Positions 39,522 to 64,000 of a stretch of 64,000 bases of DNA are shown piece by piece. Both the position numbers and the translations under genes were made by a program. The DNA is from an uncultured Candidatus Binatia bacterium. Its GTDB lineage: Bacteria > Desulfobacterota > Binatia > UBA9968 > JAJDTQ01. The number at the start of each line of letters is the position of its first letter. Positions within the stretch are counted from its first letter, which is position 1. Location: assembly GCA_965242525.1 (NCBI GenBank), contig OZ251459.1, positions 704,001-768,000 of the forward strand, written 5' to 3'. The notes below the pieces were generated by a model that saw only the letters and a list, made by a program, of their open reading frames with translations, searched no databases and was not told the DNA's origin.

Positions 39522-39642
39522 CGGTGGCGCGCTCCGCCCGGCTCATCCGTTGCAGAAGCGTCCGAACGATACCGGCTCTCCCTTGGGAAAGCGCGCCCTT
39601 CGACTTCGCTTCGCTACGCTCGGGACGAACGGGGATGGTTGT

Positions 39643-40677: not shown

Positions 40678-40777
40678 CTTCCGTTCCTCCTTCCTTCACG
40701 CATGAGAATCGACCTTCCTTTCCTCGCGCATGGGAATCGACCCGGCAGGACGCAGCGGCTGGTGCATCCTGCCGCGC

Positions 40778-44818: not shown

Positions 44819-47800
44819 TTTGCAAGCGACGGATTTCAGAGAGTTCTTCACCGCGTTGTGGGACAGGCCTCCCTTCGCTTGGCAGCAGGCACTGGCAGAA
44901 CGAGTTCTGGAGAGCGATTCCGGTGGCTCGCCCTGGCCCGAGGCCATCGCGTTGCCTACGGCGTCCGGCAAGACCGCTTGCATGGACGTTGCGGTGTTCG
45001 CCTTGGCGGCCCAGGCGTCTCGATTGGCCCAAAGGCAGACCATCACCGCGCCGCGCCGCATCTTCTTCGTGGTTGATCGGCGCGTGATCGTGGATGAGGC
45101 CCATGAACGGGCTAAAAGGCTTGTCAAGAAGCTGGAACGTGCGGAGGACGGCGTTCTCGGTAGGGTCGCGGATAATCTCCGGCAGATCGCTCACGGAGCA
45201 ACAACGGGCTTCGGTGGCGAGCATCCGTTGCCGCTGGCGGCCCACCTGTTGCGCGGCGGCATGTATCGGTCGGACGCATGGGCTCGCAACCCGTTGCAAC
45301 CCACCGTCGTTGCATCGACCGTCGATCAGATCGGCTCCCGCCTGCTGTTCCGGGCCTATGGGCGCGGCTCCGGTACGTGGCCGATCTATGCCGGACTCAT
45401 CGCCAACGACAGCCTGATCCTGCTCGACGAGGCGCACTGTGTACAGCCGTTTCTCCAGACCCTGCAAGCCGTTCGGTGTTTCCAGACCTGGGCGCAAGAT
45501 CCCCTTCGTCGCTGCTTTCATCCCGTGGTCATGTCGGCAACCCCTCCGCCGGATCTGACGGATCGATTCGACGACCAGTCCGGTGAACGCCACGATCCTC
45601 AACATCGGCTCGGCCGTCGCCAATTGGCGCACAAGCCCGCGGTCTTGCAACGAGTCGAGAAGGCGAGGGGAAAGCAGGCCACAAGCGTGTTTGCTCAGGC
45701 GCTGGCCGACGCCGCAAGGGAGTTGGTGGACGAACGGCGGCGCGCCATCGTGGTATTCGTCAACCGCGTTGCCACGGCGCGGGAGACCCATCGGCTGTTG
45801 GCTGCCGATGACCGTGACCAAGCCGTTCTGCTCACGGGCCGAATGCGTCCCGTGGACAAGGACGACCTGGTTGATCGGTTGAAGGTCCTGCACTCCGACC
45901 GCTCAGGGGAGCGTTCCTTGACAAAGCCTCTGATGGTCGTCGCCACCCAAACGCTGGAAGTCGGGGCCGACCTCGACTTCGATGGCCTCGTTACCGAGTG
46001 TGCGAGCCTCGACGCCTTGCGGCAGCGTTTTGGCCGCTTGAACCGCATGGGGCGACCCATCGAGGCGCGAGCGGCGATTCTCGTGCGCGGCGACCAGGCT
46101 GACGCAACTGAGGTCGAACAGGCAGGGAAGAAGAAAACGAAGGAACCGGATGATCCCGTTTACGGGAACGCGTTGTCCCGGACTTGGGCCTGGCTCAACC
46201 AGAGCAAGGACGAAAACGGTGAAGTCGATTTCGGGATCGCTCATCTTGACTCGTTGTTGCCACAAGGTGGTTCCCTGGCCGCACTGAACGCGCCATCCCA
46301 CAACGCTCCGGTGATGCTCCCCGCGCATGTCGATTGTTGGGCGCAGACGTCGCCCCAACCAGACCCTTCACCCGATGTGGCCCTGTTTCTTCACGGCCTA
46401 CGGGAAGGCGCCGCTGACGTGCAGGTTTGCTGGCGCGCTGACGTGGATCTGACGAACGAACGAGCCCAGTCAGATACGCTTGAGTCATTGTCCCTGTGCC
46501 CGCCGAGCAGTAGTGAAACACTCCCGGTTCCCATCGGTGTATTCAAACGCTGGTTGGCGGGGAAAGACATGGAGGACGACAGCGCTGACTTGGAAGGTGT
46601 CTGGGCAGGTGCCGGAACGGATGAAGAGGGTTCGTCTCCTGTGGCTCATGCGGTCATTCGTTGGCGCGGCGCCGAGACGGATCATAAGGATGTCACGGCG
46701 AAGCCCACCGATATTCACCCGGGCGACGTCATCGTAATCCCGGTCGACCATCCCGGTCCGTGGAGGCAACTCGGCGACCTGCCTACGGATCTCGATGATG
46801 TAGGCGATGCGGCCTATCGTCTTGCACGAGCCAAGCCCATTCTCCGCCTGCACCGGAAGCTGGTGGATGCGTGGCCGGTTTCCATGGCGACCAAGGAGAC
46901 CGCCTTCGAGTTGCTGAACGATCTGGAGCGGAAATACGAGGACGACCCCGACGAAGTCGTTGGTACCGTTGACGATTTGCTGACGGAGTTATCAGAGACG
47001 CCCGAAACGTTCCCGGGAGGCAGGTCTCGGTTGTTCGACGCCGCGAGGGAGCTCGAAGCGGAGTTTTCTTCGCCAAAATTACGCCCCGAGTGCCGCATCA
47101 TCGGAGGTAGAAGCTTGGTCGTCGTCGGACGCCGTCCCATCCCGGAACTCCTGCAGGAAGCCGATCATTTCAGCGACGAGGATGATGCCGTCGCCTCCGG
47201 CACTTCACATAGAGACGGACGTCCTGTCCGTCTGTCCAGGCACCTTCCCGGCGTTGGGGAGTTCGCAGGTCTTCATGCCGTGGGGTGTGGACTGCCGGAC
47301 GAATTGGTGGACGCCGTCACTCGCGCCGGCCGGCTGCACGACCTGGGCAAGGCCGATCCGCGGTTTCAAGCCCTGTTGCAGGGCGGCGCTCGCTGGTTGG
47401 GCGGGGAACCTCTCGCCAAATCCTTCGGAATGCCCAAGACGAGCAAGGCTCGCCTTCGTGCGTCGGGGACTTCCCGTTACCCGAAAGGCGGTCGGCACGA
47501 ACTGCTTTCGGTGCGTATGGCCGAAAGTGTCCCTGCACTCCTGCCGGAACGGCAGGAACTGCGTGATCTGACCCTGCACCTGATCGCCAGCCATCACGGT
47601 CACTGCCGACCGTTCGCTCCCGTAGTTTGCGATGAACAAGACATCCCGGTGGTTTTTGAAATGCAGGGTCACCGCTTGCAGTGGTCCGGAGCTACCGGCC
47701 TGGAACGGCTTGATTCCGGCGTAGCCGATCGTTACTGGCGCCTGGTGCGGCGCTATGGCTGGTGGGGTCTGGCTTGGTTGGAAGCCCTGTTACGACTCGC

Positions 47801-47849
47801 CGACTGGAGGCGGAGTGAGTGGGAGGAAGCACACGGTGGTGATGAGTGA
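44805..47849 (+). CDS. cas3: type I-G Cas3 helicase with C-terminal HD nuclease
   Basis: LPTASGKT, LLDEAH, MSAT, QRFGRLNR; C-terminal LHDLGKAD, RHE and SHHG. Confidence 0.95.
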   Translation: MTATDLQATDFREFFTALWDRPPFAWQQALAERVLESDSGGSPWPEAIALPTASGKTACMDVAVFALAAQASRLAQRQTITAPRRIFFVVDRRVIVDEAHERAKRLVKKLERAEDGVLGRVADNLRQIAHGATTGFGGEHPLPLAAHLLRGGMYRSDAWARNPLQPTVVASTVDQIGSRLLFRAYGRGSGTWPIYAGLIANDSLILLDEAHCVQPFLQTLQAVRCFQTWAQDPLRRCFHPVVMSATPPPDLTDRFDDQSGERHDPQHRLGRRQLAHKPAVLQRVEKARGKQATSVFAQALADAARELVDERRRAIVVFVNRVATARETHRLLAADDRDQAVLLTGRMRPVDKDDLVDRLKVLHSDRSGERSLTKPLMVVATQTLEVGADLDFDGLVTECASLDALRQRFGRLNRMGRPIEARAAILVRGDQADATEVEQAGKKKTKEPDDPVYGNALSRTWAWLNQSKDENGEVDFGIAHLDSLLPQGGSLAALNAPSHNAPVMLPAHVDCWAQTSPQPDPSPDVALFLHGLREGAADVQVCWRADVDLTNERAQSDTLESLSLCPPSSSETLPVPIGVFKRWLAGKDMEDDSADLEGVWAGAGTDEEGSSPVAHAVIRWRGAETDHKDVTAKPTDIHPGDVIVIPVDHPGPWRQLGDLPTDLDDVGDAAYRLARAKPILRLHRKLVDAWPVSMATKETAFELLNDLERKYEDDPDEVVGTVDDLLTELSETPETFPGGRSRLFDAARELEAEFSSPKLRPECRIIGGRSLVVVGRRPIPELLQEADHFSDEDDAVASGTSHRDGRPVRLSRHLPGVGEFAGLHAVGCGLPDELVDAVTRAGRLHDLGKADPRFQALLQGGARWLGGEPLAKSFGMPKTSKARLRASGTSRYPKGGRHELLSVRMAESVPALLPERQELRDLTLHLIASHHGHCRPFAPVVCDEQDIPVVFEMQGHRLQWSGATGLERLDSGVADRYWRLVRRYGWWGLAWLEALLRLADWRRSEWEEAHGGDE

Positions 47850-48771
47850 ACCGGATCCGGGTCTATTACTGAAAGGTCTCGATGGCGGCAATCTGCTGGG
47901 GTTCCTCGCATCCATCGGAACGCTACGGGCTGTAACCGAGGCAGACTCTTCGGTGAACTGGCGTATGAGATGGGAAGTGAACGGAGGTTGCTGGTCTCCT
48001 GTTCTCATGGGAGGCGGTTCGCTTACAGAGGATACTTTGATTGATCTACTGGTCCCTGTTCTAAGGCAGGTGAAGATGGATCCACCCCTGCATTCCTACA
48101 AGAACCTGACGATCAACCCTGAAGACTTCCGGGGTGTGGCTCGAGACGCTCAGACCAGAGCGACTTTCACCGACCGACACTGTGCGGATTTCGTTGCCGC
48201 CTTTGGTTGCGACATCCTGTCTGTGCCCGGGAAAGAACCGGGAAATATCCAGGACACTGCCCTCCGAACCATGAGTGGAGCAGGACATCAACACTTCCTT
48301 GATTCCATGCGAGATCTTGCGAAGAAAACCGAACCGGATCATTTGCGTAGTTCGTTATTCGAAACATGGCGATATGCAGACGACAAGCCGAACCTTCGCT
48401 GGGATCCCATGGACGACCGCCGACATGCCCTGCGTTGGAAGGAGCCTTCGGATGATCCCATACGGACGATGCGCGGCGCAAACCGCCTTGCCGTCGAAGC
48501 ACTGCCCTTGCTTCCCACCGCGCCTAGCCAACGCGAACTTCGTACGACCGGCTTCTCGCAACAGCGTGGCGAAGGTGTGTTGTTCTCGTGGCCAATCTGG
48601 AAAGTTCCCTTGAATATTGACATCGTGCGATCTCTGCTGAGTATGGCCGAGCTCAAGAAACCTGAACCGAATCGCGATATTCTCCTGAAGATGGGCGTCG
48701 TGGAGATCTACCGCAGTCAGCGAATTACCAGGGACAAATACCGCAATTTCACACCTGCCGTACCTGTATGA
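47842..48771 (+). CDS. cas8g: short type I-G Cas8g-like large subunit (Cas8u2/Cas3-extension type)
   Basis: GLDGGNLLGFLASIG, LRWDP, GANRLAVEALP, WPIW; lies between cas3 and cas4/1. Confidence 0.75.
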   Translation: MSEPDPGLLLKGLDGGNLLGFLASIGTLRAVTEADSSVNWRMRWEVNGGCWSPVLMGGGSLTEDTLIDLLVPVLRQVKMDPPLHSYKNLTINPEDFRGVARDAQTRATFTDRHCADFVAAFGCDILSVPGKEPGNIQDTALRTMSGAGHQHFLDSMRDLAKKTEPDHLRSSLFETWRYADDKPNLRWDPMDDRRHALRWKEPSDDPIRTMRGANRLAVEALPLLPTAPSQRELRTTGFSQQRGEGVLFSWPIWKVPLNIDIVRSLLSMAELKKPEPNRDILLKMGVVEIYRSQRITRDKYRNFTPAVPV

Positions 48772-50480
48772 CCCCCAACCAACAACTCTCCCTCGGTTTG
48801 CCTCCATCGCCCGTCCAGGGCGACGTGCCGCTCATTCCGGTTCGGATGATCAACGAATGGGTGTACTGTCCGCGGCTGGCCTTTCTGGAGTGGGTGGAAG
48901 GGGAATGGGCCGATAGTGGCGATACCGCGGAGGGGAAGCGCGCGCACGCCCGGGTGGACGAGGGCGGGGGACGGTTGCCGGATCCTGAAGGCCTTGGTGA
49001 CGACATGGCCCGGGCCAGGGCGGTTACCCTGTCCTCGGAACGCTTGGGGATCATCGCCAAGATGGACGTGGTGGAGGCGGACGAGGGGACGGTCACGCCC
49101 GTGGACTTCAAGAAGGGGAAACGGCCGCACGTGGCCGCGGGCGCCTATGAACCCGAACGCGTCCAGGTCTGTGCGCAGGCCATGATCCTGGAGGACAACG
49201 GCTATGCGGTGGACCGGGGGGCGTTGTGGTACACGGGCTCACGCGAGAAGGTGCCGGTGGTGCTGGACAACGAGCTTCGCGCCCGGACGCTGGATGCGGT
49301 CTCGGGCTTGCGCGGGGCCGCAATCTCGGGACGTCGGCCGCCGCCGCTCGACAACAGCCCCAAGTGCCCGCGCTGCTCGTTGGCGGGCATCTGCCTGCCG
49401 GATGAGACCAACCTGTTCCGCAAGGGCTATCCGCCGCGTCCCCTGAACCCGGCTGACGACCCGGCCCTGCCGCTCTACGTGCAGACGCCCGGCGCGAGGC
49501 TGCGCAAGAGCGGCGAACAGTTGATCGTCGAGGTCGAGGAAGAAAAGGTCGAAGTGCCGATGATCAACGTTTCCCAAGTCGCGCTGTTCGGTCCGGTCTC
49601 GGTCACGACACCGGCGCTGCATGCCCTGATGCGCGACGAAATTCCGGTCTCGTGGTTCTCTACCGGCGGCTGGTTCCTGGGTCACACCTTCGGGACCGGC
49701 AACGGAAACGTGATGGTGCGCGAGGCCCAGTATCGGTTCGCGTTCGACAAGGCCCGCTGCATGGGCTTCTCGCGCGCGCTGGTGGCGGCCAAGGTGCGGA
49801 ACGCCCGCACGCTGCTGCGCCGCAACTGGCGCGCCGACCGGAACGGAGACGACAAGGATGGGACGTTGGCGCGTCTCAGGCGTGTGGCCCAGCGAGCGCC
49901 CTATGCCGACAGCGTCCAGCAACTCCTGGGCATGGAAGGGGAGGGCGCGGCGATCTATTTCGCCAACTTCGAGAAGATGCTTGCGCCAGACGCCGGAGAT
50001 GAGTTTGCCGCGTTCGCCTTCTCGACGCGCAACCGGCGCCCGCCGACGGACCCCGTGAACGCAATGTTGTCACTGGCCTATGCGCTGCTGGCGCGAACCT
50101 TTGCCGCCGCGGTCTCGGCAACCGGACTGGACACCTACATGGGGTTCTACCACCGCCCGCGCCACGGTCGTCCGGCGCTGGCCCTCGACATGATGGAGCC
50201 GTTCCGTCCCCTGGTGGCCGATTCGTGCGTGATCCAGGTCATCAACAACGGCGAGGTCAAGCCGGGCGATTTCATCTTCAACGGCCCGGCGTGCGCCTTG
50301 AAGCCGCGTGGTCGCAAGGCGCTGATCGCCGCCTTCGAGCGCCGCATGGAACAGGAGACCACCCATCCACTCTTCGGCTATCGCGTCTCCATGCGCCGGT
50401 TGATCGACGTCCAGGCGCGGCTTCTCGCCCGGCACCTGCAGGGCGAGATCCCGACCTATCCGCACTATCTCCCCCGGTAA
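48768..50480 (+). CDS. cas4/cas1: Cas4-Cas1 fusion
   Basis: YCPRL, VDFKKG, CPRCSLAGIC (Cas4 Fe-S); LLGMEGEGA, NAMLSLAY, ALDMMEPFRP (Cas1). Confidence 0.95.
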   Translation: MTPNQQLSLGLPPSPVQGDVPLIPVRMINEWVYCPRLAFLEWVEGEWADSGDTAEGKRAHARVDEGGGRLPDPEGLGDDMARARAVTLSSERLGIIAKMDVVEADEGTVTPVDFKKGKRPHVAAGAYEPERVQVCAQAMILEDNGYAVDRGALWYTGSREKVPVVLDNELRARTLDAVSGLRGAAISGRRPPPLDNSPKCPRCSLAGICLPDETNLFRKGYPPRPLNPADDPALPLYVQTPGARLRKSGEQLIVEVEEEKVEVPMINVSQVALFGPVSVTTPALHALMRDEIPVSWFSTGGWFLGHTFGTGNGNVMVREAQYRFAFDKARCMGFSRALVAAKVRNARTLLRRNWRADRNGDDKDGTLARLRRVAQRAPYADSVQQLLGMEGEGAAIYFANFEKMLAPDAGDEFAAFAFSTRNRRPPTDPVNAMLSLAYALLARTFAAAVSATGLDTYMGFYHRPRHGRPALALDMMEPFRPLVADSCVIQVINNGEVKPGDFIFNGPACALKPRGRKALIAAFERRMEQETTHPLFGYRVSMRRLIDVQARLLARHLQGEIPTYPHYLPR

Positions 50481-50485
50481 CCGTC

Positions 50486-50779
50486 ATGGCCAACGAGCGC
50501 CTCTACGTCGTTACCTACGACATCGCCGAGCCGAAGCGATGGCGTCAGGTGTTCAAGACCATGAAGGGCTACGGCCAGTGGCTGCAACTGTCGGTCTTTC
50601 AGTGCCGGTTGACGGCGCGCAGAAGGGCGGAGATGACCGCACGCCTGGAGAACCTCATCCGGCCATCGGATGACCACGTCCTGATCCTCGACCTGGGTCT
50701 CGCCGACCAGGTCCATCCCCATGTGGAAAGCATAGGCAAGGTCTATGAAACGCCCACACGCCAGGCGACCGTCGTCTAA
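50486..50779 (+). CDS. cas2: Cas2
   Basis: YVVTYDIAEPKRW...WLQLSVF. Confidence 0.95.
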   Translation: MANERLYVVTYDIAEPKRWRQVFKTMKGYGQWLQLSVFQCRLTARRRAEMTARLENLIRPSDDHVLILDLGLADQVHPHVESIGKVYETPTRQATVV

Positions 50780-50989: not shown

Positions 50990-53900
50990 GTTTCCGGGGC
51001 GATTGTTGCCCCGGCCTCATTGAAGCGACGCGAACCAGCCCTTCGCAGTCTCCGCACCGACACGCTCGTTTCCGGGGCGATTGTTGCCCCGGCCTCATTG
51101 AAGCATGCGCACCGTCCCCTCTTCCACGAAGTAGAAATGCGGAGGTTTCCGGGGCGATTGTTGCCCCGGCCTCATTGAAGCCGAGTGAGCAACCGGGACC
51201 CCACATCCGGGCCAACAGTTTCCGGGGCGATTGTTGCCCCGGCCTCATTGAAGCCCCGAGCACGGCACCGTGTGGATCCAGATGGTCCTCAGTTTCCGGG
51301 GCGATTGTTGCCCCGGCCTCATTGAAGCGCCGGCACCTTCCCGGTCGCGTCCAGCTCGCACACCGTTTCCGGGGCGATTGTTGCCCCGGCCTCATTGAAG
51401 CAGGCCCTCGATCACGCGGGCGGCCGAGGCCCAGCTCAGTTTCCGGGGCGATTGTTGCCCCGGCCTCATTGAAGCGCCGGCACCTTCCCGGTCGCGTCCA
51501 GCTCGCACACCGTTTCCGGGGCGATTGTTGCCCCGGCCTCATTGAAGCGAGGCCCGGGCCGGTCTCCCCGGACCGCGCTTCGATGTTTCCGGGGCGATTG
51601 TTGCCCCGGCCTCATTGAAGCGCTACTACTGGACGCGCTCCCCGAAGGGGCCGTGGAGTTTCCGGGGCGATTGTTGCCCCGGCCTCATTGAAGCAACTTG
51701 CGGGTGCTGATCGGGGAGCCCTGGCACAACTGTTTCCGGGGCGATTGTTGCCCCGGCCTCATTGAAGCGGCGTGGGCCTCCCCGCGGCCAGGATCAATGG
51801 CCCGTCCAGTTTCCGGGGCGATTGTTGCCCCGGCCTCATTGAAGCGCGTCTAAGGCACGTTCTCGGGGACGGCGCCCGGACGTTTCCGGGGCGATTGTTG
51901 CCCCGGCCTCATTGAAGCTTGGAGTTCCTCGATGAGGCCCGCTCCGTCGCTGCTGGTTTCCGGGGCGATTGTTGCCCCGGCCTCATTGAAGCTCGGGGAC
52001 GGCGCCCGGACCGCGTGACTCCCTCTTGACGGGTTTCCGGGGCGATTGTTGCCCCGGCCTCATTGAAGCTGCTGGTTCGACGAGACGGCGCATCGGTTCC
52101 TCGACGTGTTTCCGGGGCGATTGTTGCCCCGGCCTCATTGAAGCAACCAACCAGGGACCCTCTCCGAAGCCCGCGTCAGGTTTCCGGGGCGATTGTTGCC
52201 CCGGCCTCATTGAAGCCGGTTTCCGTGGGATGTTGTGCGAGGGTTGCGCGGGAAGTTTCCGGGGCGATTGTTGCCCCGGCCTCATTGAAGCGATGGGCGT
52301 CGCCGAGAGCCAGGGGTGGGCCTGGGACAAGGTTTCCGGGGCGATTGTTGCCCCGGCCTCATTGAAGCGAGAAGGGTACGAAGAACCGGCGCACCAGCAG
52401 CGGGGCGTTTCCGGGGCGATTGTTGCCCCGGCCTCATTGAAGCAGGGTAACTCGTCTACTGGGCAAGGACGTAGACGAGTTTCCGGGGCGATTGTTGCCC
52501 CGGCCTCATTGAAGCCGGACCTCTTCCACCAGCCGCTCCAGGGCGGCAGACGTTTCCGGGGCGATTGTTGCCCCGGCCTCATTGAAGCGTCGTTGATCGT
52601 GTTGCGGATGGCGTCCGGCATGATGTTTCCGGGGCGATTGTTGCCCCGGCCTCATTGAAGCTCCCGACGGCATGCTCTGCATCTCACCGCATCGCTCGCA
52701 GTTTCCGGGGCGATTGTTGCCCCGGCCTCATTGAAGCGTGCACTTCATCGCTCTCGACGTTGGTGGAGGCATGAAGTTTCCGGGGCGATTGTTGCCCCGG
52801 CCTCATTGAAGCCCCGGAGACGCAGATTCCCGAAATGGGTATCACCTTGGCGGGTTTCCGGGGCGATTGTTGCCCCGGCCTCATTGAAGCGCGTACGGCC
52901 TTGAGGATTTTGGCCCGATTTGCAATCGTTTCCGGGGCGATTGTTGCCCCGGCCTCATTGAAGCGGGAACTCTTCGGCGGCCTGTGCGAGCTTCCAATCG
53001 TTTCCGGGGCGATTGTTGCCCCGGCCTCATTGAAGCAGGAAGTCCTCGGACCGGCTGGAGGCATCGGGTACTGTTTCCGGGGCGATTGTTGCCCCGGCCT
53101 CATTGAAGCCGCGACTCCTCGCCGGTCCTCGCGGTCCGCCCGCATGTTTCCGGGGCGATTGTTGCCCCGGCCTCATTGAAGCGACGATGGCGCCTCCATG
53201 GATCCGCATGATCCCCTGGGTTTCCGGGGCGATTGTTGCCCCGGCCTCATTGAAGCTAGCCATCTATCGCTAGGTCCGGATGTAGTCATGGATGTTTCCG
53301 GGGCGATTGTTGCCCCGGCCTCATTGAAGCAGCGGGACGGACGGACGGCGCTGCACGGAGTGCGGGGTTTCCGGGGCGATTGTTGCCCCGGCCTCATTGA
53401 AGCACCGGCAAGGTAACCGGACTGCCAACCACGTACGCGCAGTTTCCGGGGCGATTGTTGCCCCGGCCTCATTGAAGCAGCATCACGTTCAGCCCAACGT
53501 TGCTATTCAGGTAGTGTTTCCGGGGCGATTGTTGCCCCGGCCTCATTGAAGCTGGGATTACTGTCTGAAGGGGAACGGGTATCTGCACGTTTCCGGGGCG
53601 ATTGTTGCCCCGGCCTCATTGAAGCTCAACATGGCAACCACCCGGTAACCACCCGGTAACGTTTCCGGGGCGATTGTTGCCCCGGCCTCATTGAAGCACT
53701 GCACGAGAGACCACATCCGCCGTTGCCTTCTCGTCGTTTCCGGGGCGATTGTTGCCCCGGCCTCATTGAAGCCGGGATGATGGGCTTCAGCTTGTCTATC
53801 AACCCCTCCAGTTTCCGGGGCGATTGTTGCCCCGGCCTCATTGAAGCGCGGCGCATATCTGGAGGCGGAATCTGGCGGGTCGGCTGTTTCCGGGGCGATT

Positions 53901-56900
53901 GTTGCCCCGGCCTCATTGAAGCCACGGAACCGCATTGGGTTTTCTACGACGTGAACGAACGTTTCCGGGGCGATTGTTGCCCCGGCCTCATTGAAGCACC
54001 ATCCCCTACTCTCCTTTCCCGTTTCGCCGCCGGAGTTTCCGGGGCGATTGTTGCCCCGGCCTCATTGAAGCACAAGAGATCATAGTGAGAGACACAATAC
54101 TACTGGACAGTTTCCGGGGCGATTGTTGCCCCGGCCTCATTGAAGCTGCAAAGCCCCCATGACGATCCGCCCCCACGCGGGGGTTTCCGGGGCGATTGTT
54201 GCCCCGGCCTCATTGAAGCTGCGCGGTGCCGCTCGAGTCGTACGCCAGCGCCCACAGTTTCCGGGGCGATTGTTGCCCCGGCCTCATTGAAGCAGAGAAA
54301 AGTGATCCACTGGAAACTCCTTCCTCGACCGTTTCCGGGGCGATTGTTGCCCCGGCCTCATTGAAGCGTCAGGAACGGGAAGGCGTCCAGGGCCGCGTAG
54401 TCGGTTTCCGGGGCGATTGTTGCCCCGGCCTCATTGAAGCGTCTCCGCCGACCGCCACCAGCCACAGGCCCGCGGCGTTTCCGGGGCGATTGTTGCCCCG
54501 GCCTCATTGAAGCCGTCGGGCGATCTCCGGAGCGCGCGCGATGTCCCCGGTTTCCGGGGCGATTGTTGCCCCGGCCTCATTGAAGCCCCCGGTTGGTGAT
54601 GTCGATGCGCACCACCACCCCCGTTTCCGGGGCGATTGTTGCCCCGGCCTCATTGAAGCAGGACAACCGGGGACTACGGCGACTGGATCGACATCGCGGG
54701 TTTCCGGGGCGATTGTTGCCCCGGCCTCATTGAAGCCAGGCCAGAGCGGTGAACCGGACGGGCGACGGAGCCGGGTTTCCGGGGCGATTGTTGCCCCGGC
54801 CTCATTGAAGCCGGGCGCCGCCCGCCACCCGCTCCGCTTGAAGTTGGCCTGTTTCCGGGGCGATTGTTGCCCCGGCCTCATTGAAGCGTCGAGGACCTCA
54901 AGCAGGTAGAGGGAGGAACCACATTGGTTTCCGGGGCGATTGTTGCCCCGGCCTCATTGAAGCACCCATTCCTCAAGTATCTTCAAGGGCTGGAAATGCG
55001 TTTCCGGGGCGATTGTTGCCCCGGCCTCATTGAAGCTTCTCGTCCACAACCGCACGGCGCAACACACCGGACAGTTTCCGGGGCGATTGTTGCCCCGGCC
55101 TCATTGAAGCGGGGTCAATGAGGGATGTAATGCAGGTAGATATAATCGTTTCCGGGGCGATTGTTGCCCCGGCCTCATTGAAGCTGCCAGCTGGCTCTGT
55201 GCGTCGATCATCGTGGCCTCCTAGTTTCCGGGGCGATTGTTGCCCCGGCCTCATTGAAGCAACTCATCCCCTGAGGGTCCTGTCGTCGTGAGCGTGAGTT
55301 TCCGGGGCGATTGTTGCCCCGGCCTCATTGAAGCGACTCATCCCCTGAGGGTCCTGTCGTCGTGAGCGTGGTTTCCGGGGCGATTGTTGCCCCGGCCTCA
55401 TTGAAGCTTTGCCTCGGCAAGCGTCTGGCCGCCTACTCCGCTGTGTTTCCGGGGCGATTGTTGCCCCGGCCTCATTGAAGCGAGGCCCGCCGCGGACGTC
55501 CATACGGCCCCGGCCGGGAGTTTCCGGGGCGATTGTTGCCCCGGCCTCATTGAAGCAGCAGCGTTCCCACTCCGGCCGCGGCGCCCGCGAGCCGTTTCCG
55601 GGGCGATTGTTGCCCCGGCCTCATTGAAGCCATCGGCTGACCCAGGCGGCGACGGTGCGGGTGACGGTTTCCGGGGCGATTGTTGCCCCGGCCTCATTGA
55701 AGCGGGGCCGCCGCCTACCGGTCCGGGGGGCGGTGGGGGTGTTTCCGGGGCGATTGTTGCCCCGGCCTCATTGAAGCACGGCAACCGACTCGACAGGCAC
55801 ACGATCCAGTTCGAGTTTCCGGGGCGATTGTTGCCCCGGCCTCATTGAAGCCCTGGCAACCTTTGTCCCAAGTCCACCCCTTCCAAACGTTTCCGGGGCG
55901 ATTGTTGCCCCGGCCTCATTGAAGCCATACTCAGGACGATACAACTTCAATACCCTGTTCCTGGTTTCCGGGGCGATTGTTGCCCCGGCCTCATTGAAGC
56001 GCGACCTCGGGCTCTCCGTCTCTCTCTGCTCTCTCGATGTTTCCGGGGCGATTGTTGCCCCGGCCTCATTGAAGCACGCCGTCCACCGTCCGCGTCCGGG
56101 GCGCGTCCTTCGTTTCCGGGGCGATTGTTGCCCCGGCCTCATTGAAGCCCGGCGCCGGGTCCGCTGGCGGCCGCGGCGCCGCCGAGTTTCCGGGGCGATT
56201 GTTGCCCCGGCCTCATTGAAGCGCTCGGACGATGCCGCTACAGAGTGGGCCAGACTGGAGTTTCCGGGGCGATTGTTGCCCCGGCCTCATTGAAGCATCG
56301 CCCGCGGCGACGTGGTCTACATGTGCATGGTGTTTCCGGGGCGATTGTTGCCCCGGCCTCATTGAAGCATTGCGGATCAGATCCCAGATCGGTTCCGTAT
56401 CCGCGTTTCCGGGGCGATTGTTGCCCCGGCCTCATTGAAGCCTGGCGTATCTCGATTCGGCTCGTGCTGGAGCAGGGGTGTTTCCGGGGCGATTGTTGCC
56501 CCGGCCTCATTGAAGCAACACCTTGACCGTAGCGAGCTGGCGGATGGGAGACGGTTTCCGGGGCGATTGTTGCCCCGGCCTCATTGAAGCGGTCATCCAC
56601 GACAGTGCCTGGCGGACGTACTCTTCGAGTTTCCGGGGCGATTGTTGCCCCGGCCTCATTGAAGCCCACCCGTAGATGTGGGTTCGCGCTCGTTGCTCCG
56701 AGTTTCCGGGGCGATTGTTGCCCCGGCCTCATTGAAGCATACAAGACTGTGACCTCCAACGAGCGACGGACGCCAGTTTCCGGGGCGATTGTTGCCCCGG
56801 CCTCATTGAAGCGCGGTGTTGCTCCACACCCTGCCGCGGCGGAGCTGGAGTTTCCGGGGCGATTGTTGCCCCGGCCTCATTGAAGCAACTCGGGCAGGGC

Positions 56901-59900
56901 CGCGTAGATCTCCCGCAGGTGGTTTCCGGGGCGATTGTTGCCCCGGCCTCATTGAAGCGGCGGGATCGTCGGGTTCGCGGTGGTCGGGTCTTCGGGGTTT
57001 CCGGGGCGATTGTTGCCCCGGCCTCATTGAAGCCGGCGGGCCGGTCCGTGGTGTCGAGACCGGCCCATCGTTTCCGGGGCGATTGTTGCCCCGGCCTCAT
57101 TGAAGCTCGCCCTGCCAGCCTAGGCTAGGCTAGGCGGTGCCCACGCGTTTCCGGGGCGATTGTTGCCCCGGCCTCATTGAAGCAGCGGGTCGTTCACCAC
57201 TCGGACCGGGGCCGCGATGTGTTTCCGGGGCGATTGTTGCCCCGGCCTCATTGAAGCGAGCCCACCCTGGTGTCCGACGAGGACGGACGCCCGGCCAGTT
57301 TCCGGGGCGATTGTTGCCCCGGCCTCATTGAAGCTGGGCGATCTGCACGGCGATCTGGACCATGACCTCCACGTTTCCGGGGCGATTGTTGCCCCGGCCT
57401 CATTGAAGCGACACGATCACAGGCGCGATAGCGAGACTGCGCGACGTTTCCGGGGCGATTGTTGCCCCGGCCTCATTGAAGCGAGGGCGGCTTCCTCCGC
57501 GGCGAGGCGCTGGCGCTCGGGTTTCCGGGGCGATTGTTGCCCCGGCCTCATTGAAGCCCCGGGACTCCAAAGAGAAAGGACATGGGGACGATGGGTTTCC
57601 GGGGCGATTGTTGCCCCGGCCTCATTGAAGCTGCGCGATCTTCTTCACATCGTCGGCGTCCCAAAACTGTTTCCGGGGCGATTGTTGCCCCGGCCTCATT
57701 GAAGCCGGAGACAGGAGGATGCGATATCCGCACTGTCGCGGGCGTTTCCGGGGCGATTGTTGCCCCGGCCTCATTGAAGCCACGTCGCGGAGCACACGGC
57801 CTCCGCGGCAGGCCGCCGTTTCCGGGGCGATTGTTGCCCCGGCCTCATTGAAGCGACATCGGGGAGGGGGGAGCAGACCTGTGCGCCACCGTGGTTTCCG
57901 GGGCGATTGTTGCCCCGGCCTCATTGAAGCGGCACCGGCACGCGGCGCGCCACCATGGCGCTGAGGCGTTTCCGGGGCGATTGTTGCCCCGGCCTCATTG
58001 AAGCAGCCGGCAGCGGTGGTGCTGCTCTGCGGGAGGCCAGTAGTTTCCGGGGCGATTGTTGCCCCGGCCTCATTGAAGCCCACACGGATAGATGTTGCTG
58101 GAGGTGCTCGATCGCGTTTCCGGGGCGATTGTTGCCCCGGCCTCATTGAAGCAATGAGGAATTTGCCAAACGCCTGAAGGAGATAGACAAGGTTTCCGGG
58201 GCGATTGTTGCCCCGGCCTCATTGAAGCTTAGGGTCTGGAAGATGTGCCCGTCAGAGAGGGTCTCGTTTCCGGGGCGATTGTTGCCCCGGCCTCATTGAA
58301 GCATAATGGGGTCCACCACGCTCAGCCGGATGCTCTCCCGGTTTCCGGGGCGATTGTTGCCCCGGCCTCATTGAAGCAGCCTGCAGCGGTGGTGCTGCTC
58401 TGCGGGAGGCCAGTGTTTCCGGGGCGATTGTTGCCCCGGCCTCATTGAAGCTAGCTCGCCTCGACCAGCCGCTGGCGGCAGCGCCCGGGTTTCCGGGGCG
58501 ATTGTTGCCCCGGCCTCATTGAAGCCTCCACCGTGAGGAGCCGCCGCGCAAGATCATCGGCGGGTTTCCGGGGCGATTGTTGCCCCGGCCTCATTGAAGG
58601 TTCGAAAGGTCCACACGCTCCACCTGATGGACCGAGGTTTCCGGGGCGATTGTTGCCCCGGCCTCATTGAAGGGCGCGGCGCTCCTTCTTGCGCCGCGCC
58701 GCCCGCTCCTGTTTCCGGGGCGATTGTTGCCCCGGCCTCATTGAAGGGCCGACAACCTCCGCCCCATCCTTGAACGCAAGGGATGGGTTTCCGGGACGAT
58801 TGTTGCCCCGGCCTCATTGAAGGCGTACCTCCCGCCTGTCCTTCCCAGTAGTGATAAATACCTGTTTCCGGGGCGATTGTTGCCCCGGCCTCATTGAAGG
58901 GTCCTATACGTCTAGTAGCTTCTTCTCTCTCCTTTCTACGTTTCCGGGGCGATTGTTGCCCCGGCCTCATTGAAGGCCGCGCCGCCGAAGGAGCAGTGGT
59001 AAACCAGCGGGGCGAGGTTTCCGGGGCGATTGTTGCCCCGGCCTCATTGAAGGGCCGCGGATGCGTCCGACAGGCCCGCCACCAGCGCGTGTTTCCGGGG
59101 CGATTGTTGCCCCGGCCTCATTGAAGGGGCGTCGGCCTTGTCGATGTCGAGCAGCATGAGGGGGGTTTCCGGGGCGATTGTTGCCCCGGCCTCATTGAAG
59201 GATGATCTGCATCATCTACCTCCTGTCCGGCCTTGTGGGTTTCCGGGGCGATTGTTGCCCCGGCCTCATTGAAGGGACAACAGGCGGACTGGCGAGGCAA
59301 TATCCGTCAGTGGTTTCCGGGGCGATTGTTGCCCCGGCCTCATTGAAGGTGGACGGCGCGCCTTTCGCGGACGGCTGGCACATTGTTTCCGGGGCGATTG
59401 TTGCCCCGGCCTCATTGAAGACTGGAATAGATACAACGCAAGCAGATCCAAGAGCGTTTCCGGGGCGATTGTTGCCCCGGCCTCATTGAAGGGGCGTTGA
59501 GCCTGGCGGAACACGGGCGGCGGGACTCCGGTTTCCGGGGCGATTGTTGCCCCGGCCTCATTGAAGGAACAGGTTTTTGTCGATGGGGGTCATGGGGTCT
59601 CTCGTTTCCGGGGCGATTGTTGCCCCGGCCTCATTGAAGGACGGCGGCGCACAGGCGCAAGGAGGCGGTAGCATGGTTTCCGGGGCGATTGTTGCCCCGG
59701 CCTCATTGAAGGCCCTTCCGTTGCGCCCGCCTACTCAACCGGACGATCCCGTTTCCGGGGCGATTGTTGCCCCGGCCTCATTGAAGGGAGTTCGGCGATA
59801 CGGAAGTCGTCGACCTCGGTGCGGTTTCCGGGGCGATTGTTGCCCCGGCCTCATTGAAGGCCGAGGATGGGGAAGACGCCCAGGCCGAAGCTGACGTTTC

Positions 59901-61413
59901 CGGGGCGATTGTTGCCCCGGCCTCATTGAAGGAGGACGTGCGCCGGGCCAAGCGGATCATGCAGCAGCGGTTTCCGGGGCGATTGTTGCCCCGGCCTCAT
60001 TGAAGGAGGACGTGCGCCGGGCCAAGCGGATCATGCAGCAGCGGTTTCCGGGGCGATTGTTGCCCCGGCCTCATTGAAGTGGCCTGGCGGCCGGCGATGA
60101 TGGACGGGACCGCGGAGTTTCCGGGGCGATTGTTGCCCCGGCCTCATTGAAGTGCCCCACCGTTCTATCGTATCAAGCCTGGCGTCTACGACGTTTCCGG
60201 GGCGATTGTTGCCCCGGCCTCATTGAAGTCGTGGGGGGCTGTGGCGACGGCGGAATACCTGCACCTGTTTCCGGGGCGATTGTTGCCCCGGCCTCATTGA
60301 AGTATTCCGGCAGGGGGGGCAAGGGTCAGGGACCAGGGCGTTTCCGGGGCGATTGTTGCCCCGGCCTCATTGAAGTAAGCTCGACTGGCTCGACTACTTC
60401 GGCGGCTACCTGGTTTCCGGGGCGATTGTTGCCCCGGCCTCATTGAAGTGCCGAAGCCTTGACCTTCCACTACCTCGAAGCCGACGAGTTTCCGGGGCGA
60501 TTGTTGCCCCGGCCTCATTGAAGTAGGTGTACTTACTCCGTAGGTTCGGGTATCACCCGAGTTTCCGGGGCGATTGTTGCCCCGGCCTCATTGAAGACTG
60601 CCGTGGGGTCTGCCGTCTTCGATGGCGTGCGCGGTTTCCGGGGCGATTGTTGCCCCGGCCTCATTGAAGCGGCCAGCCGATACGGGTCCACCACAGCCGG
60701 GTCATCGTTTCCGGGGCGATTGTTGCCCCGGCCTCATTGAAGACCGTTCCTGGGCAATCCAACCAACCGAGATCGGGCCTGTTTCCGGGGCGATTGTTGC
60801 CCCGGCCTCATTGAAGCGGCCAGCCGATACGGGTCCACCACAGCCGGGTCATCGTTTCCGGGGCGATTGTTGCCCCGGCCTCATTGAAGCTCGCCGTGCT
60901 CGCCGGGGAACAGGTCCTCGGTGACGGAGTTTCCGGGGCGATTGTTGCCCCGGCCTCATTGAAGCAGGATCGGGTACAGTTGTGTTGCCTCGCTCATCCC
61001 GCGGTTTCCGGGGCGATTGTTGCCCCGGCCTCATTGAAGCAGGAACGAGATCGCAGAGAAGCGCGAGCGGAAGCACCGGTTTCCGGGGCGATTGTTGCCC
61101 CGGCCTCATTGAAGCTCGTAGTCTACTAGCACTGTATCTCTGCAGATTATCACGTTTCCGGGGCGATTGTTGCCCCGGCCTCATTGAAGCCGAGGGTGTC
61201 TCCGAGCGGCGCCATCTCCATGTGCCCCGTTTCCGGGGCGATTGTTGCCCCGGCCTCATTGAAGCGGTTGCCAGGTAGAAGGTCCTGATGTCCCGCTGAC
61301 GCGTTTCCGGGGCGATTGTTGCCCCGGCCTCATTGAAGCACCGGGAAGGGACGCCTGTGGTAGCGGGAAGGAATGAGTTTCCGGGGCGATTGTTGCCCCG
61401 GCCTCATTGAAGC
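50990..61413 (+). CRISPR. CRISPR array, about 141 repeats GTTTCCGGGGCGATTGTTGCCCCGGCCTCATTGAAG(N), spacers about 34-41 nt
   Basis: Manual count; CCGGGGC/GCCCCGG hairpin; ATTGAAG 3' end; one variant repeat at 58787. Confidence 0.98.
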
Positions 61414-61874
61414 CGCTGTCGACGGACAGAAGGAATGATTTGGCGCTATGTGGCGTGATGTGGCGCTAAGTGGCGCAGGGGTGGGGAGTTTCGAGGAAAT
61501 GGGCGGGGTTTGGGACGGACAGAATAAATGATCTTTTCGGGTAAAATGGTGTGAAAAAGGGGGTTTTTCGAGGGTTTTTCGGGGGGTTTCGGCCCCCCTT
61601 TTTCGTTGGGGTTTTCGGGGGTCGATGGCGGCGCGAGGTGGATGACGGCGGTGGGGTGGGGTTGGGATGGGTCCGGCAGGGAAGTCGGTGTCAGGGTTGG
61701 GTTGCGGGGATGCGCGGGGGCGGGTTCTGTCCCTGGGGGTGCAGGTCGGGGCGCGGACACGCGGGCGGGGCGCGGCCCTGGGGGATTTGTCAGGACGGCC
61801 ATCGACCGGCGGGGAGGTCGGTCGTCAGGGTTGGGGGCACGGGCATGCGGGGGGTGCGGGCCTGGGGGTGATGG

Positions 61875-62156
61875 TCAGTCGGGGTTGGCGTCGTGGGCGG
61901 CGAAGTACCAGGGGAACTTGGCGCGCCATTGCTCATCGGTCATGTCGTCGAGGGCCTCGAACTCCTCGTCGGACATGGCCTCCAGTTCTTCCATGAGGCG
62001 GACGTTCTCGGGGTGGCGCAGCAGGTACTCGTTGGTGAGGTCCTGGTCCCGCATCCGCTCTCCCAGGTCGGGGGCCGCCTCAGTGCCCCACTCGTGTTCG
62101 TGCTCGGCGAACCACTTCTTCGATTCTTCCACCCAGGCTCTGTCTTCGTCGGTCAT
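61875..62156 (-). CDS. small acidic protein, candidate immunity protein of the upstream ART toxin
   Basis: 93 aa, very D/E-rich; AGGAGG RBS; directly downstream of the ART gene. Confidence 0.6.
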   Translation of the reverse strand: MTDEDRAWVEESKKWFAEHEHEWGTEAAPDLGERMRDQDLTNEYLLRHPENVRLMEELEAMSDEEFEALDDMTDEQWRAKFPWYFAAHDANPD

Positions 62157-62211
62157 CGCTTCCTCCTGGGACTGACCGGGCGCTTCGGCCCCCGCTTGGT
62201 CAGGTCGGGTC

Positions 62212-63290
62212 TCACCGGATCACTTCCTTCATTCTGAAGGTGAGAGTATCGCCTTCGCCGCGCTCCATGTCAATGACCTCGAAGGGGGTTCCCGGTGGGA
62301 AGAGGACTTCGTCTTCGTCGTCCCGGGTGAAGGCGGAGATGCTGCTGCCCCTGGACCTCTGCCCCTTGTCGGGCTTTTTCACGATGATCTTGTGCGGCCC
62401 CTGGTAAGCCTTTCCGGGGCTGTTGCTGGTGGACGTGAAGGCGGGGTCGGAGACGATCTTGTCCTTCCTGTCCGTGGCTTCGGCTGCCCGGATGTACTGC
62501 TGGAGGACGGGAGGGGGAAGCTCGGTCCCTCGGAAGACCTGGTCTTTTCGCCGGGGGAGTTTCTGGATGGCGGCTTTCAGGGTGAGGGATCGGTCTCGCA
62601 CAGCCTTCTTGGCCTTGGGATCGACGCCGCGCAGGGCCTGGTTGATGGTGTGGAAGGCCCATTGTCCCTGTCGGATGCTGTAGGCGTAGAGGCCGACGAG
62701 TTCGGTGTCGGTGAGGTTGTAGCGCTGGGCGTCGCGGTCGCGCATGAGTCGGAGGACCTCGGTCCGATAGTCGGTATAGTCGCTGCCCATCTGGCGGACC
62801 ACGCGCTGCTGGAAGGCGGGTTCGAGGCCGGCGGCGCCGACGTTGTGGTCCCAACCGGGGTCGATGCCCCGGGGGACCTGGTGGACCTTGCCGGTGCGCT
62901 TGTTGCGCCAGGGGCGGACGTCTCCGGGTGAGGAGTAGGGCGGGGTTCCCTGGGTGAGGGCGAGGCCGTAGCGTTCGAGGTCGTCGGCGTCCAACTGGGC
63001 CACGGTGCATCGGCAGCCCCAGCCGTTGGGGGGGTAGTGTGTCTCCCACCAGGGGTCGTCGATGGGGAGGACGGTGTCGTGCCAGGCGGCGTGTTCGGGG
63101 CGTGTGGCGCCGTCCTGGACTGCGACGTAGCGGAGGTAGGGCATACGGTCCTTGAGTCGCTGGATGCGGTCCCATTTGCCTGCGGCGTAGGCGGTGGAGA
63201 TGTTGGTGTCGAAGATGGTGCGGAGGCGTCGGAGGGAGGGTTGTCGGCGAAGTGCTGGAAGCCGTGGCCGTCCGCGATGGAGGAGTCCAT
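62212..63290 (-). pseudogene. phage Mu gpF (MuF) head-morphogenesis domain fused to an R-S-E type ADP-ribosyltransferase; 5'-truncated and frameshifted
   Basis: RLRTIFDTN...TRPEH...PPNGWGCRC (MuF); VFRG, FTSTS, EDEVLFPPG (ART); ATG at 63290 is out of frame with the body near 63235. Confidence 0.8.
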
Positions 63291-63326
63291 GGCGGCGCGG
63301 GCTCCTGGCCGCGCCCGAAGGGCAGT

Positions 63327-63433
63327 GTTTCCGGGGACTTGTTGCCCCGGCCTCATCGAGGCCCGGTCTGCGGCGGTCGCTTGGAGGGCGGCGAGGGGTT
63401 TCCGGAGTCCTGCTGCCCCGGCCTCGTCGAAGC
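63327..63433 (+). CRISPR. two degenerate CRISPR repeats with one 36-nt spacer (displaced array trailer)
   Basis: GTTTCCGGGGACTTGTTGCCCCGGCCTCATCGAGG and GTTTCCGGAGTCCTGCTGCCCCGGCCTCGTCGAAGC. Confidence 0.85.
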
Positions 63434-63487
63434 GCCCCGCCAGGATGCCCCGCCGGACCGCCCCCCGATCCCCGGAGCGTCCGAGGG

Positions 63488-63540
63488 TTGACAATCACAA
63501 CATGTTGTGGGTATCTTCGGGATTTTGCACCATATAGGGC
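63488..63540 (+). promoter_or_regulatory. sigma70-type promoter overlapped by NrdR box(es)
   Basis: TTGACA at 63488 and TATCTT at 63512; palindrome CACAACATGTTGTG at 63496-63509; weaker second box about 31 bp downstream; precedes an RNR gene. Confidence 0.75.
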
Positions 63541-63583
63541 TGACGCCGTACCGAGCCGCGTCACTCCACGAGAGGGAGGAACC

Positions 63584-64000
63584 ATGTCTGCGATCACGAC
63601 CACCACAACCGCCAAGCCGCTTCGCGAGGATGTCGTCAAGGGGCGAGGGACGGGCATTCGGGTCCCGCGCTATTTCACCAGGGAAGGAGTCAACCCCTAC
63701 GACGAGGTCGAGTGGGAGATCCGCTCGGCGACCATCCAGAACGACGGCGGGCAGGTCGTGTTCGAGCAGAACAACGTGGAGATGCCCAAGGCATGGTCCC
63801 AGATGGCCACCAACGTCGTGACCTCCAAGTACTTCCGCGGCCCGCTGGGGACGCCCCAGCGGGAACGGACGGTGCGGCAGCTCATCAGCCGGGTGGTGGA
63901 CACCATCACGGCGTGGGGCCGGGCGGACGGCTACTTTGCCGAAGAGGGCGACGCCAGGGCCTTCTCCGACGAGCTCACCCACATCCTCCTGCACCAGAAG
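63584..64000 (+). CDS. nrdJ: vitamin B12-dependent (class II) ribonucleotide reductase, 5' part
   Basis: Manual translation RYFTREGVNPYDEVEWE...WSQMATNVVTSKYFRG...ELTHILLHQK. Confidence 0.9.
   Translation, partial: MSAITTTTTAKPLREDVVKGRGTGIRVPRYFTREGVNPYDEVEWEIRSATIQNDGGQVVFEQNNVEMPKAWSQMATNVVTSKYFRGPLGTPQRERTVRQLISRVVDTITAWGRADGYFAEEGDARAFSDELTHILLHQK

Follow-up and report, generated by a model that had tools for sequence, protein, structure and literature searches.

How does a gene for a phage toxin come to lie inside a CRISPR array? The question is raised by a stretch of 64,000 nucleotides (nt) from an uncultured Candidatus Binatia bacterium (contig OZ251459.1 of assembly GCA_965242525.1, positions 704,001 to 768,000), here called the window. 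Near its right end a long type I-G array stops after a last perfect repeat at 61377, and two degenerate repeats follow after a gap of 1,913 nt (61414-63326). The gap holds, on the strand opposite to the array, a gene with a MuF domain and an ADP-ribosyltransferase (ART) domain, and a small acidic open reading frame (ORF). A preliminary description of this DNA, made from its letters alone, had put the gap at about 1.9 kb and had left two readings of it: the remnant of a phage that inserted in the array, or a domesticated toxin-immunity module whose expression is tied to the array. The first of these stands and can be made precise. A Mu-like transposable phage probably left the block behind as its last 1.9 kb, and to this reading we give a probability of about 0.8. 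In this light the insert is an ordinary prophage scar, and it carries a readable trace of a conflict between the array and its lodger. The features on which the argument rests are as follows, with the basis of each assignment in brackets.

50990-61413, plus strand: CRISPR array with 141 repeats (36-37 nt each) and 140 spacers (35-42 nt each) (repeat search; Rfam CRISPR-DR16).
58747-58786, plus strand: MuF-matching spacer, encoding ADNLRPILERKGW (translation; protein comparison).
58787-58822, plus strand: the one repeat among the 141 that carries a mutation (G10 to A, in the stem of its hairpin), which would form the 3' hairpin of the MuF-directed CRISPR RNA (crRNA) (repeat comparison, folding).
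61412-61416, plus strand: presumed 5-bp target GCCGC (from the 5-bp duplication in a related prophage, G043).
61414-61416, plus strand: CGC, first 3 nt of the disrupted spacer (sequence).
61417-61623, plus strand: phage end with 5'-TGT terminus at 61417, site 1 at 61421-61438, site 2 at 61514-61531 and hairpin at 61581-61603 (motif, relatives).
61624-61874, no strand: G-rich non-coding stretch, variable in metagenome run X6 (skips of 47 nt and 18 nt).
61875-62156, minus strand: intact acidic ORF of 93 amino acids (aa) with an AGGAGG ribosome-binding site, candidate cognate immunity protein (sequence, homologues).
62212-63300, minus strand: MuF-ART pseudogene, ART domain about 62251-62736, MuF domain 63001-63249 (Pfam, homologue alignment).
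62245-62273, minus strand: TTGACA-17-GATACT, a promoter-like site that lies upstream of the small ORF and within the 3' end of the ART gene (consensus match only).
63238-63239, minus strand: junction of an 88-nt deletion, cause of the frameshift; of the protospacer that belongs to spacer 58747, only its first 10 nt are left (contigs of runs X4 and X6, homologues).
63301-63326, plus strand: probable 3' remainder of the disrupted spacer, 26 nt (from the end of MuF homology; no match elsewhere).
63327-63362 and 63398-63433, plus strand: two degenerate repeats, 35-36 nt apart, the ancestral trailer (sequence, Rfam, relic in G023).

Relationship of the insert to Mu-like phages

The sequence three nt past the last perfect repeat is TGTCGACGGACAGAAGGAATGAT, and a second copy of its motif, GACGGACAGAATAAATGAT, lies 93 nt further on. 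The insert has what the end of a Mu-like phage should have, a 5'-TG terminus and repeated subterminal sites of the transposase type. The genus has 28 reference genomes. In a genome of this genus, G002, a site is 71% identical to the first 211 nt of the insert. Its homology to the window begins no more than 4 nt from the 5'-TGT at 61417, and the flank outside it is a fragment of an unrelated host gene.

A second member of the genus, G043, has an intact Mu-like prophage of 37,133 bp (G043:C2:1626636-1663768, loci L215-L217). It is bounded, as in the window, by 5'-TGT termini and GGACA(G/A)AATAAATGA sites. The end next to its MuF gene reads TGTGAGGGGACAGAATAAATGA, with the second site 128 nt inside, and the opposite end is the inverted TGTAGGCGGACAAAATAAATGA with an adjacent second site. 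The core of the end motif occurs at these four places only within 89 kb, and the prophage is flanked by a 5-bp duplication (GGGGA/GGGGA). The gene order on one strand towards the first end is transposase A, transposase B, Gam, late activator, terS, terL, portal, MuF and an ORF of 127 aa. Transposase A matches Pfam DDE_2 (1.2e-47) and phrog_310, and the head protease lies beyond it on the opposite strand, in a divergent layout. This element is a Mu-like transposable phage, and its native gene order closes, at one end, with MuF followed by a small ORF, the arrangement seen in the window. The MuF core is 66% identical to that of the window; the C-terminus and the small ORF are unrelated, as expected of polymorphic toxins.

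Other searches for the end and its cargo found little. Among 123 genomes of the order, the end region occurred in three: the window's own genome (G000), G002 and, as a match of 43 nt, G012. A scan of genome contigs for the end motif gave 105 stretches; among the 80 that were listed, essentially all were chance matches except the G002 locus (L076). Against IMG/VR, the motif had a single irrelevant AT-rich match, and P0006, the closest full-length homologue of the toxin, had only relatives of at most 50% identity over the MuF domain. The insert itself, compared by blastn with a phage database, was covered to only 3-12%, over the MuF core. Genes for the DDE transposases A and B, present in the G043 prophage, are absent from the 1.9-kb remnant. 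A search of G000 with the Mu-transposase-C family (PF09299) gave no match, and its positive control was equally silent.

Two candidates were rejected. A second GCCGC at 63308-63312 was considered as the other copy of the target duplication, and the bases that precede it do not end like a phage terminus. The CI-like repressor gene beside the G002 relic is a host gene conserved across the genus, not a phage gene. The same G002 locus has a stretch of about 580 nt (L076 7492-8070) with at least seven further copies in G002 at 87-94% identity; seven are listed in G004 and it also occurs in G022. It is probably a small mobile element. In G010 (L005, L020, L025-L027) the number of MuF genes is four. 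Their open frames measure 727, 522, 500 and 549 aa, and the last of these matches has an internal TAG. One MuF of this genome, of 726 aa, has an ART-like C-terminal end and adjoins a portal gene; the Pfam DDE_2 transposase was not found in G010.

The MuF toxin gene and its alleles

The preliminary description had read the antisense gene as a MuF-ART fusion with intact R/STS/ExE motifs, and domain searches bear this out. Phage_Mu_F (PF04233) was found in the ART frame at an E value of 4.6e-19, over profile positions 25-111 of 112, and the MuF part matches phrog_220 at 1e-54. The C-terminal toxin domain scored above the Pfam cut-offs for both ADPrib_exo_Tox (PF03496, 4.6e-6) and ART (PF01129, 7.5e-5). 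The catalytic residues are present, namely R in VFRG (62538-62527), S-T-S (62439-62425) and E-D-E (62316-62299), and R240, S273 and E314 are invariant in 8/8 aligned homologues. The closest solved relative of the ART domain by sequence is a 'PAAR repeat-containing protein' (PDB 6drh_B / 6dre_B, E 1.4e-8, query residues 173-335), which we take to be Tre1, an ADP-ribosyltransferase effector from Serratia, together with Tri1, its immunity protein. The active sites are alike in their R-S-E type; the delivery domain differs, being MuF and not PAAR. The candidate immunity protein of the window, acidic, 93 aa long and of no known family, is unlike the larger hydrolase-type immunity of Tre1.

The gene is not complete and cannot be translated as a whole, owing to both a 5' truncation and a frameshift, two defects that the preliminary description had correctly recognized. 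P0006 is 448 aa long, and ATG 63290 corresponds to an internal Met, position 59 of that protein. MuF homology reaches three codons (R-A-A, about 10 nt) further upstream and then ends, with about 55 codons missing. The distance of exactly 36 nt between this ATG and the first degenerate repeat, to which the length of a spacer unit had been ascribed, is correct as a distance; the sense of a spacer unit is lost because about 10 of these 36 nt are MuF sequence, and the figure is a coincidence. Seventeen codons after ATG 63290 the frame shifts: 30 codons that every homologue has (LRP...AQLG) are down to two bases, and ATG 63290 and the ART domain are in different frames because 88 nt are missing at 63238|63239. 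The first in-frame ATG past the frameshift is at 63144. The homologue P0003 (388 aa, 95% identical) begins at the Met equivalent to ATG 63290 and has no frameshift.

The window's stretch occurs in sponge metagenome runs, and these contain both allele forms. The 88 additional letters are present at 63238|63239 in contigs of X4 and X6 and missing from contigs of X1 and X5; X4 has both forms. The sister allele that keeps them has an open frame of 388 aa from ATG 63290, with AGGAG 11 nt upstream. A contig of X6 (record 26) runs from MuF through the extra 88 letters and the degenerate repeats into the region upstream of nrdJ, the gene that we take to be a class II ribonucleotide reductase-like gene at ATG 63585, named by its N-terminal sequence. 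This strain is about 3-4% different at aligned bases. The X6 strain has the same 5' truncation and the same place in the array, and it lacks the 88-nt loss, which is therefore the younger event. A further X6 contig (record 24, 860 nt) matches the phage end and the small ORF, and departs from the window in its 64 nt to the left of 61416. A related phage inserted elsewhere, or virion DNA, could be its source. An apparent X6 joint from 61413 to 63327 (depth 3.19, side 24) was considered as an empty site, and is better read as an array unit aligned over two repeat copies.

The small acidic ORF and expression signals

The small ORF of the preliminary description is intact and is confirmed to encode an acidic protein of 93 aa (pI 4.27; 28 D+E against 9 K+R). 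Seven homologues of 92-97 aa were found in a large protein collection. The protein had no match in Pfam, PHROGs or NCBIfam and no usable match in the ESM Atlas. Elsewhere in the genus, the genome G023 has a relic that is flanked by nth and a UbiD-family gene. Its ART C-terminus, 92% identical to P0006, is broken and contains one TAG, and next to it stands an open homologue of the small ORF, of 100 aa. For selection keeping the cassette the sequences offer weak evidence. The 93-aa ORF is a candidate immunity protein for the MuF-ART toxin.

Three promoter-like sites were found, against 0.2 expected from shuffles. The one at 62245-62273, a consensus match, fits the independent expression expected of an immunity gene. 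The hairpin with T-run at 61581-61603 is terminator-like, faces read-through from the array and is kept in the G002 end; that it terminates array transcription is a guess. An ORF at 61446-61802 on the minus strand has no family match.

A spacer against the MuF gene

One spacer of the array points at the gene that now lies at its end. The peptide encoded by spacer 58747-58786, ADNLRPILERKGW, is identical in 12 of 13 aa to residues 15-27 of P0003. When 142 spacer-like sequences were compared by blastx with 129 collected proteins, only this spacer rose above noise (E 2.1e-5, against 0.035 for the best match in a reversed database). The relic keeps the first 10 nt of the protospacer (GCCGACAACC) with TTC before them. 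This protospacer adjacent motif (PAM) agrees with the TTN reported for type I-G (PMC9638904). The 88-nt deletion starts at the next base, protospacer position 11-12, and removes the rest of the protospacer.

The array itself bears a second mark at the same spacer. The repeat is GTTTCCGGGGCGATTGTTGCCCCGGCCTCATTGAAG(C), with 141 copies starting from 50990 to 61377, 140 of them perfect. The exception, with one mismatch, is the repeat at 58787, which adjoins the MuF-directed spacer. Its G-to-A change opens the stem, and the predicted hairpin energy is -9.1 kcal/mol, against -16.3 for the wild type. A contig of 169 nt from X1 traverses this repeat. The chance that a random 88-nt deletion in a 1,164-nt gene meets the protospacer is about 0.1, and that the mutated repeat adjoins this spacer about 0.01, figures whose product (0.1 x 0.01) is rough and post hoc and is to be discounted. 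Taken together, the two coincidences are hard to dismiss.

Self-targeting is known to be escaped when the target, its PAM or the array is deleted or mutated (reviewed in PMC6990116), and type I-G is described as making long bidirectional deletions, and small ones with its helicase disabled (PMC10482374). The 88-nt deletion and the repeat mutation suggest, short of proof, such an escape. At present, no spacer of the window's array matches its own genome, and none has a credible match in the other loci compared or in the G043 prophage. The seed of spacer 58747 had 0 matches in IMG/VR, and a 20-nt seed found 20 loci in JGI metagenomes, all of them other genes with the peptide ADNLRP and an identity of 23-27/40 to the spacer. 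In G023, 4 of 150 spacers match MuF proteins (E 6e-7 to 3e-4, with no separate decoy for that set), and 1 of 140 in the window's array.

Proposed history of the locus

We propose the following history. A Mu-like phage would have transposed into a spacer near the trailer of the type I-G array, 3 nt past a repeat. A single large deletion would then have run from about codon 55 of MuF through the far phage end and its copy of the target duplication, into the remaining spacer, of which 6-13 nt would have been taken. What was left behind would be the 1.9 kb with the phage end, the candidate immunity gene and the 5'-truncated MuF-ART gene. In this genome the truncated toxin gene then lost its frame through the 88-nt deletion, which starts inside the protospacer of one of the array's own spacers. 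This spacer, 58747, may have been acquired from a related phage, upon which the array would have attacked the resident relic. The conflict would have ended, in the reading we prefer, by loss of the target, by weakening of the crRNA, or by both. The stronger version, in which the array turned on its resident relic and the autoimmunity was resolved twice, by a protospacer deletion that disarmed the toxin gene and by a repeat mutation that broke the hairpin, is tentative, and we place it a little below even odds. The anatomy of the locus, the homologies, the allele polymorphism and the intact prophage of a relative are observed; what we infer from them is how the events followed one another, that one deletion sufficed, that the small ORF has an immunity function, and self-targeting as the cause.

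Several points weigh against this history. The window has lost the far phage end together with the target duplication, and no transposase gene is left at the locus, so that transposition here is deduced from the relatives. The 64 non-matching nt of X6 record 24 fit a separate insertion by a related phage. Terminator-like hairpins are not more numerous than in shuffles (4 against 2.8 +/- 1.9), and the fold has a z-score of 0.63. The small ORF shows no sign of purifying selection in the pairwise comparison with the G023 copy (dN/dS = 1.04 over 93 codons). The protospacer match is at the protein level only, and P0003 is one residue of 13 off the spacer, so that a perfect match is unproven. If one route of escape sufficed, the second is left unexplained. 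A Ku gene was not found, and the 88-nt junction has no microhomology ('both' = 0). The site may also simply be prone to deletion, because another deletion, in P0007, starts after the same FADN and lies between two 8-nt direct repeats.

Alternative explanations

In the alternative that was the preliminary description's second reading, the block is a domesticated toxin-immunity (addiction) module coupled to the array like CreTA, with the degenerate repeats as an antitoxin-type mini-array. In CreTA the toxin is an RNA, and the antitoxin RNA, made beside the cascade genes, has degenerate repeats on either side of a sequence that is complementary to the promoter of the toxin. Our locus is alike in having degenerate repeats near a toxin gene at a CRISPR locus. 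The intact catalytic residues of the ART, the intact small ORF with its strong ribosome-binding site and promoter-like site, the open 388-aa frame of the sister allele and the small ORF that stays open in the G023 relic, though the ART part there is broken, would all suit such a module.

The age of the repeats argues otherwise. The array of G023 (150 repeats of the same family, each one base shorter) ends beside the same nrdJ promoter without a phage block, and a relic of the last degenerate repeat (…TCCTCGAAGCACCCGCC…) stands there beside nrdJ, aligned to window positions 63420-63440. Because this relic adjoins nrdJ in a genome that is free of the insert, the degenerate repeats of the window, by comparison of the two loci, are the old trailer of the array and predate the insert. 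The sequence between them (63362-63397) shows no complementarity to the insert above chance: the longest complementary match is 9 nt, which 222 of 300 shuffles equal. The toxin of the window, a protein enzyme at the trailer, is frameshifted in this genome, and no promoter-like site was found on the minus strand upstream of 63290 or of 63144 in a consensus scan. The terminator-like hairpin faces read-through from the array, the cassette is natively terminal in the phage, as in G043, and the dN/dS of the small ORF does not speak for its upkeep. Nothing was found, CreTA-like or other, by which the array would control how the block is expressed. We consider this module very improbable; the preliminary description was right about the phage remnant, and over-read the block as a CRISPR-coupled toxin module.

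A phage or Tn7-like element might instead target CRISPR arrays deliberately, as a safe site or to blunt immunity. The insertion just 3 nt past a repeat invites the idea, and precedents exist in array-targeting elements that occupy a fixed spacer position (PMC11837452) and in ΦAP1.1, which integrates into repeats (bioRxiv 10.1101/2020.10.09.333658). The element here is a 37-kb Mu-type phage, not a Tn7-like transposon, and a random insertion into an array falls within 3 nt of a repeat border in about 10% of cases. Two other insertions with the same family of ends lie outside arrays, in a gene fragment in G002 and after a gene in G043, each with flanks of its own, which leaves 1 of 3 in an array. 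The location at the trailer costs the array almost nothing. Deliberate targeting keeps only a slim chance.

Capture of linear phage DNA at a break, or an aberrant integration by Cas1-Cas2 that made a 'giant spacer', would account for a block that begins 3 nt from a repeat on its left and abuts a repeat (0 nt) on its right, and for a left border that is a genuine phage genome end. The last 26 nt on the right, though, are not MuF sequence, and we know of no long-insert integration by Cas1-Cas2. In addition, Mu-type virion DNA has host DNA past its ends (PMC5977238), and a free end exactly at TGT would be unexpected. We think capture about as improbable as targeting.

Least credible of all is an assembly artefact that joined the array to unrelated phage DNA: arrays are rich in repeats and this is a metagenome-type assembly, but 61386-63640 is covered, without any difference, by an X1 contig of 2,702 nt (X1 is maybe the sample behind the window's assembly, so this is a check of consistency and maybe not an independent one), both the left and the right border of the insert are bridged by contigs from X4 and X6, X4 record 9 spans 61381-62574, X6 record 26 links MuF to the nrdJ upstream region in another strain, and the insert is single-copy, with one MuF match in G000.

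The CRISPR-Cas locus and its flanks

The remaining features of the locus are these.

41316-50779, plus strand: type I-G cas genes, namely csb1/cas7g, csb2, cas3g, a Cas3-extension gene, a cas4-cas1 fusion and cas2 (Pfam; NCBIfam TIGR02570, TIGR02165, TIGR02621, NF049934).
Between cas2 and 50990, plus strand: leader (array orientation).
63488-64000, plus strand: promoter-like site with palindrome and start of the class II ribonucleotide reductase-like gene (ATG 63585), conserved flank (sequence).

The type I-G set comprises Csb1/Cas7g, Csb2 (Cas5-Cas6), Cas3g with a C-terminal HD domain, the Cas4-Cas1 fusion and Cas2, as found with Pfam and NCBIfam. Directly upstream of csb1 lies an ORF of 473 aa (39550-40971, plus strand) without a Pfam or NCBIfam match, which by its position could be the large subunit (Cas8g/Csx17) of the effector. 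Rfam CRISPR-DR16 matches the last perfect repeat on the plus strand as 37 nt (61377-61413). This places the leader next to cas2 and makes the opposite end of the array its old, trailer end. The same model gives a weak match to the first degenerate repeat, 63327-63362 (24.4 bits, against a gathering score of 35). Three spacer sequences occur twice in the array with one unit between the copies (51328/51475, 59932/60006 and 60670/60817), and look like local duplications.

The arrays of the window and of G023 have no spacer in common, the best match being 20 of 21 nt. A single gap of 167 nt interrupts the repeats of the G023 array (L213, 150 repeats), and in its trailer about 170 nt of unrelated sequence separate a truncated repeat from the relic of the last repeat. 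Beyond the trailer of the window, 63488-63530 has TTGACA and TATCTT with the palindrome ACAACATGTTGT between them. It lies upstream of the reductase-like gene and is kept at 80-83% in many members of the genus. The palindrome is probably an NrdR box or operator, as we take it.

Comparison with known systems

The gene pair of the window is a member of the MuF polymorphic toxins, now broken. These proteins of temperate phages join a MuF head-protein domain, at the N-terminus, to a C-terminal toxin that varies. According to Jamet et al. 2017 (PMC5576092), ADP-ribosyltransferases make up 14% of 191 MuF toxins, a small ORF follows in 89%, and about 3% of the genes are in prophage remnants; CRISPR is mentioned 0 times in that text. 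The window is alike in its MuF domain, C-terminal ART and downstream small ORF. It differs in that its copy is 5'-truncated, frameshifted and inside a CRISPR array, and in its carrier, a Mu-type Binatia phage with the cassette at its terminus.

A parallel to the proposed conflict is found in lysogens of the Mu-like phage DMS3 in P. aeruginosa, where a partial spacer match was resolved by deletions, rearrangements and changes of the CRISPR locus (PMC11406979). Both cases involve a transposable phage with 5-bp duplications and a resident prophage partly matched by a host spacer. DMS3, however, is a case of laboratory evolution with a whole prophage in a type I-F host, whereas the window has a natural relic within a type I-G array, whose resolution we have to reconstruct. 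ΦAP1.1 and the Tn7-like transposons are alike in being mobile elements inside a CRISPR array. The two sources named above describe them as site-specific or TnsD-directed, at repeats or at a fixed spacer position, and recurrent at arrays, in cyanobacteria (Tn7-like) and S. pyogenes (ΦAP1.1). The phage of the window made a single array insertion as a Mu-type phage of low specificity, and both of its two relatives are inserted elsewhere. Recurrent insertion at repeats or at a fixed array position was thus not seen among the three known insertions of this family of ends. A description of a Mu-like phage relic, or of a MuF toxin, inside a CRISPR array was not seen among the papers that a literature search listed, which is no proof of absence.

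Implications for Binatia and their phages

The block is a prophage scar and should not be counted as a CRISPR-linked toxin-antitoxin system. With it, the ends, the 5-bp duplication and the gene order are now defined for a family of Mu-like phages in Binatia, an uncultivated lineage known from sponge metagenomes and with long type I-G arrays. MuF toxin-immunity cassettes are terminal cargo of these phages and therefore survive as relics close to a phage end. Sister strains of the same sponge-associated population keep an open toxin frame of 388 aa beside the partner gene. The locus also offers a case from nature in which escape from self-targeting can be tested for type I-G, a system that has been little studied, and both alleles are still present in public runs. 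If the proposed conflict is true, the locus would record, in nature and allele by allele, how CRISPR self-targeting shaped the decay of a toxin cassette from a prophage.

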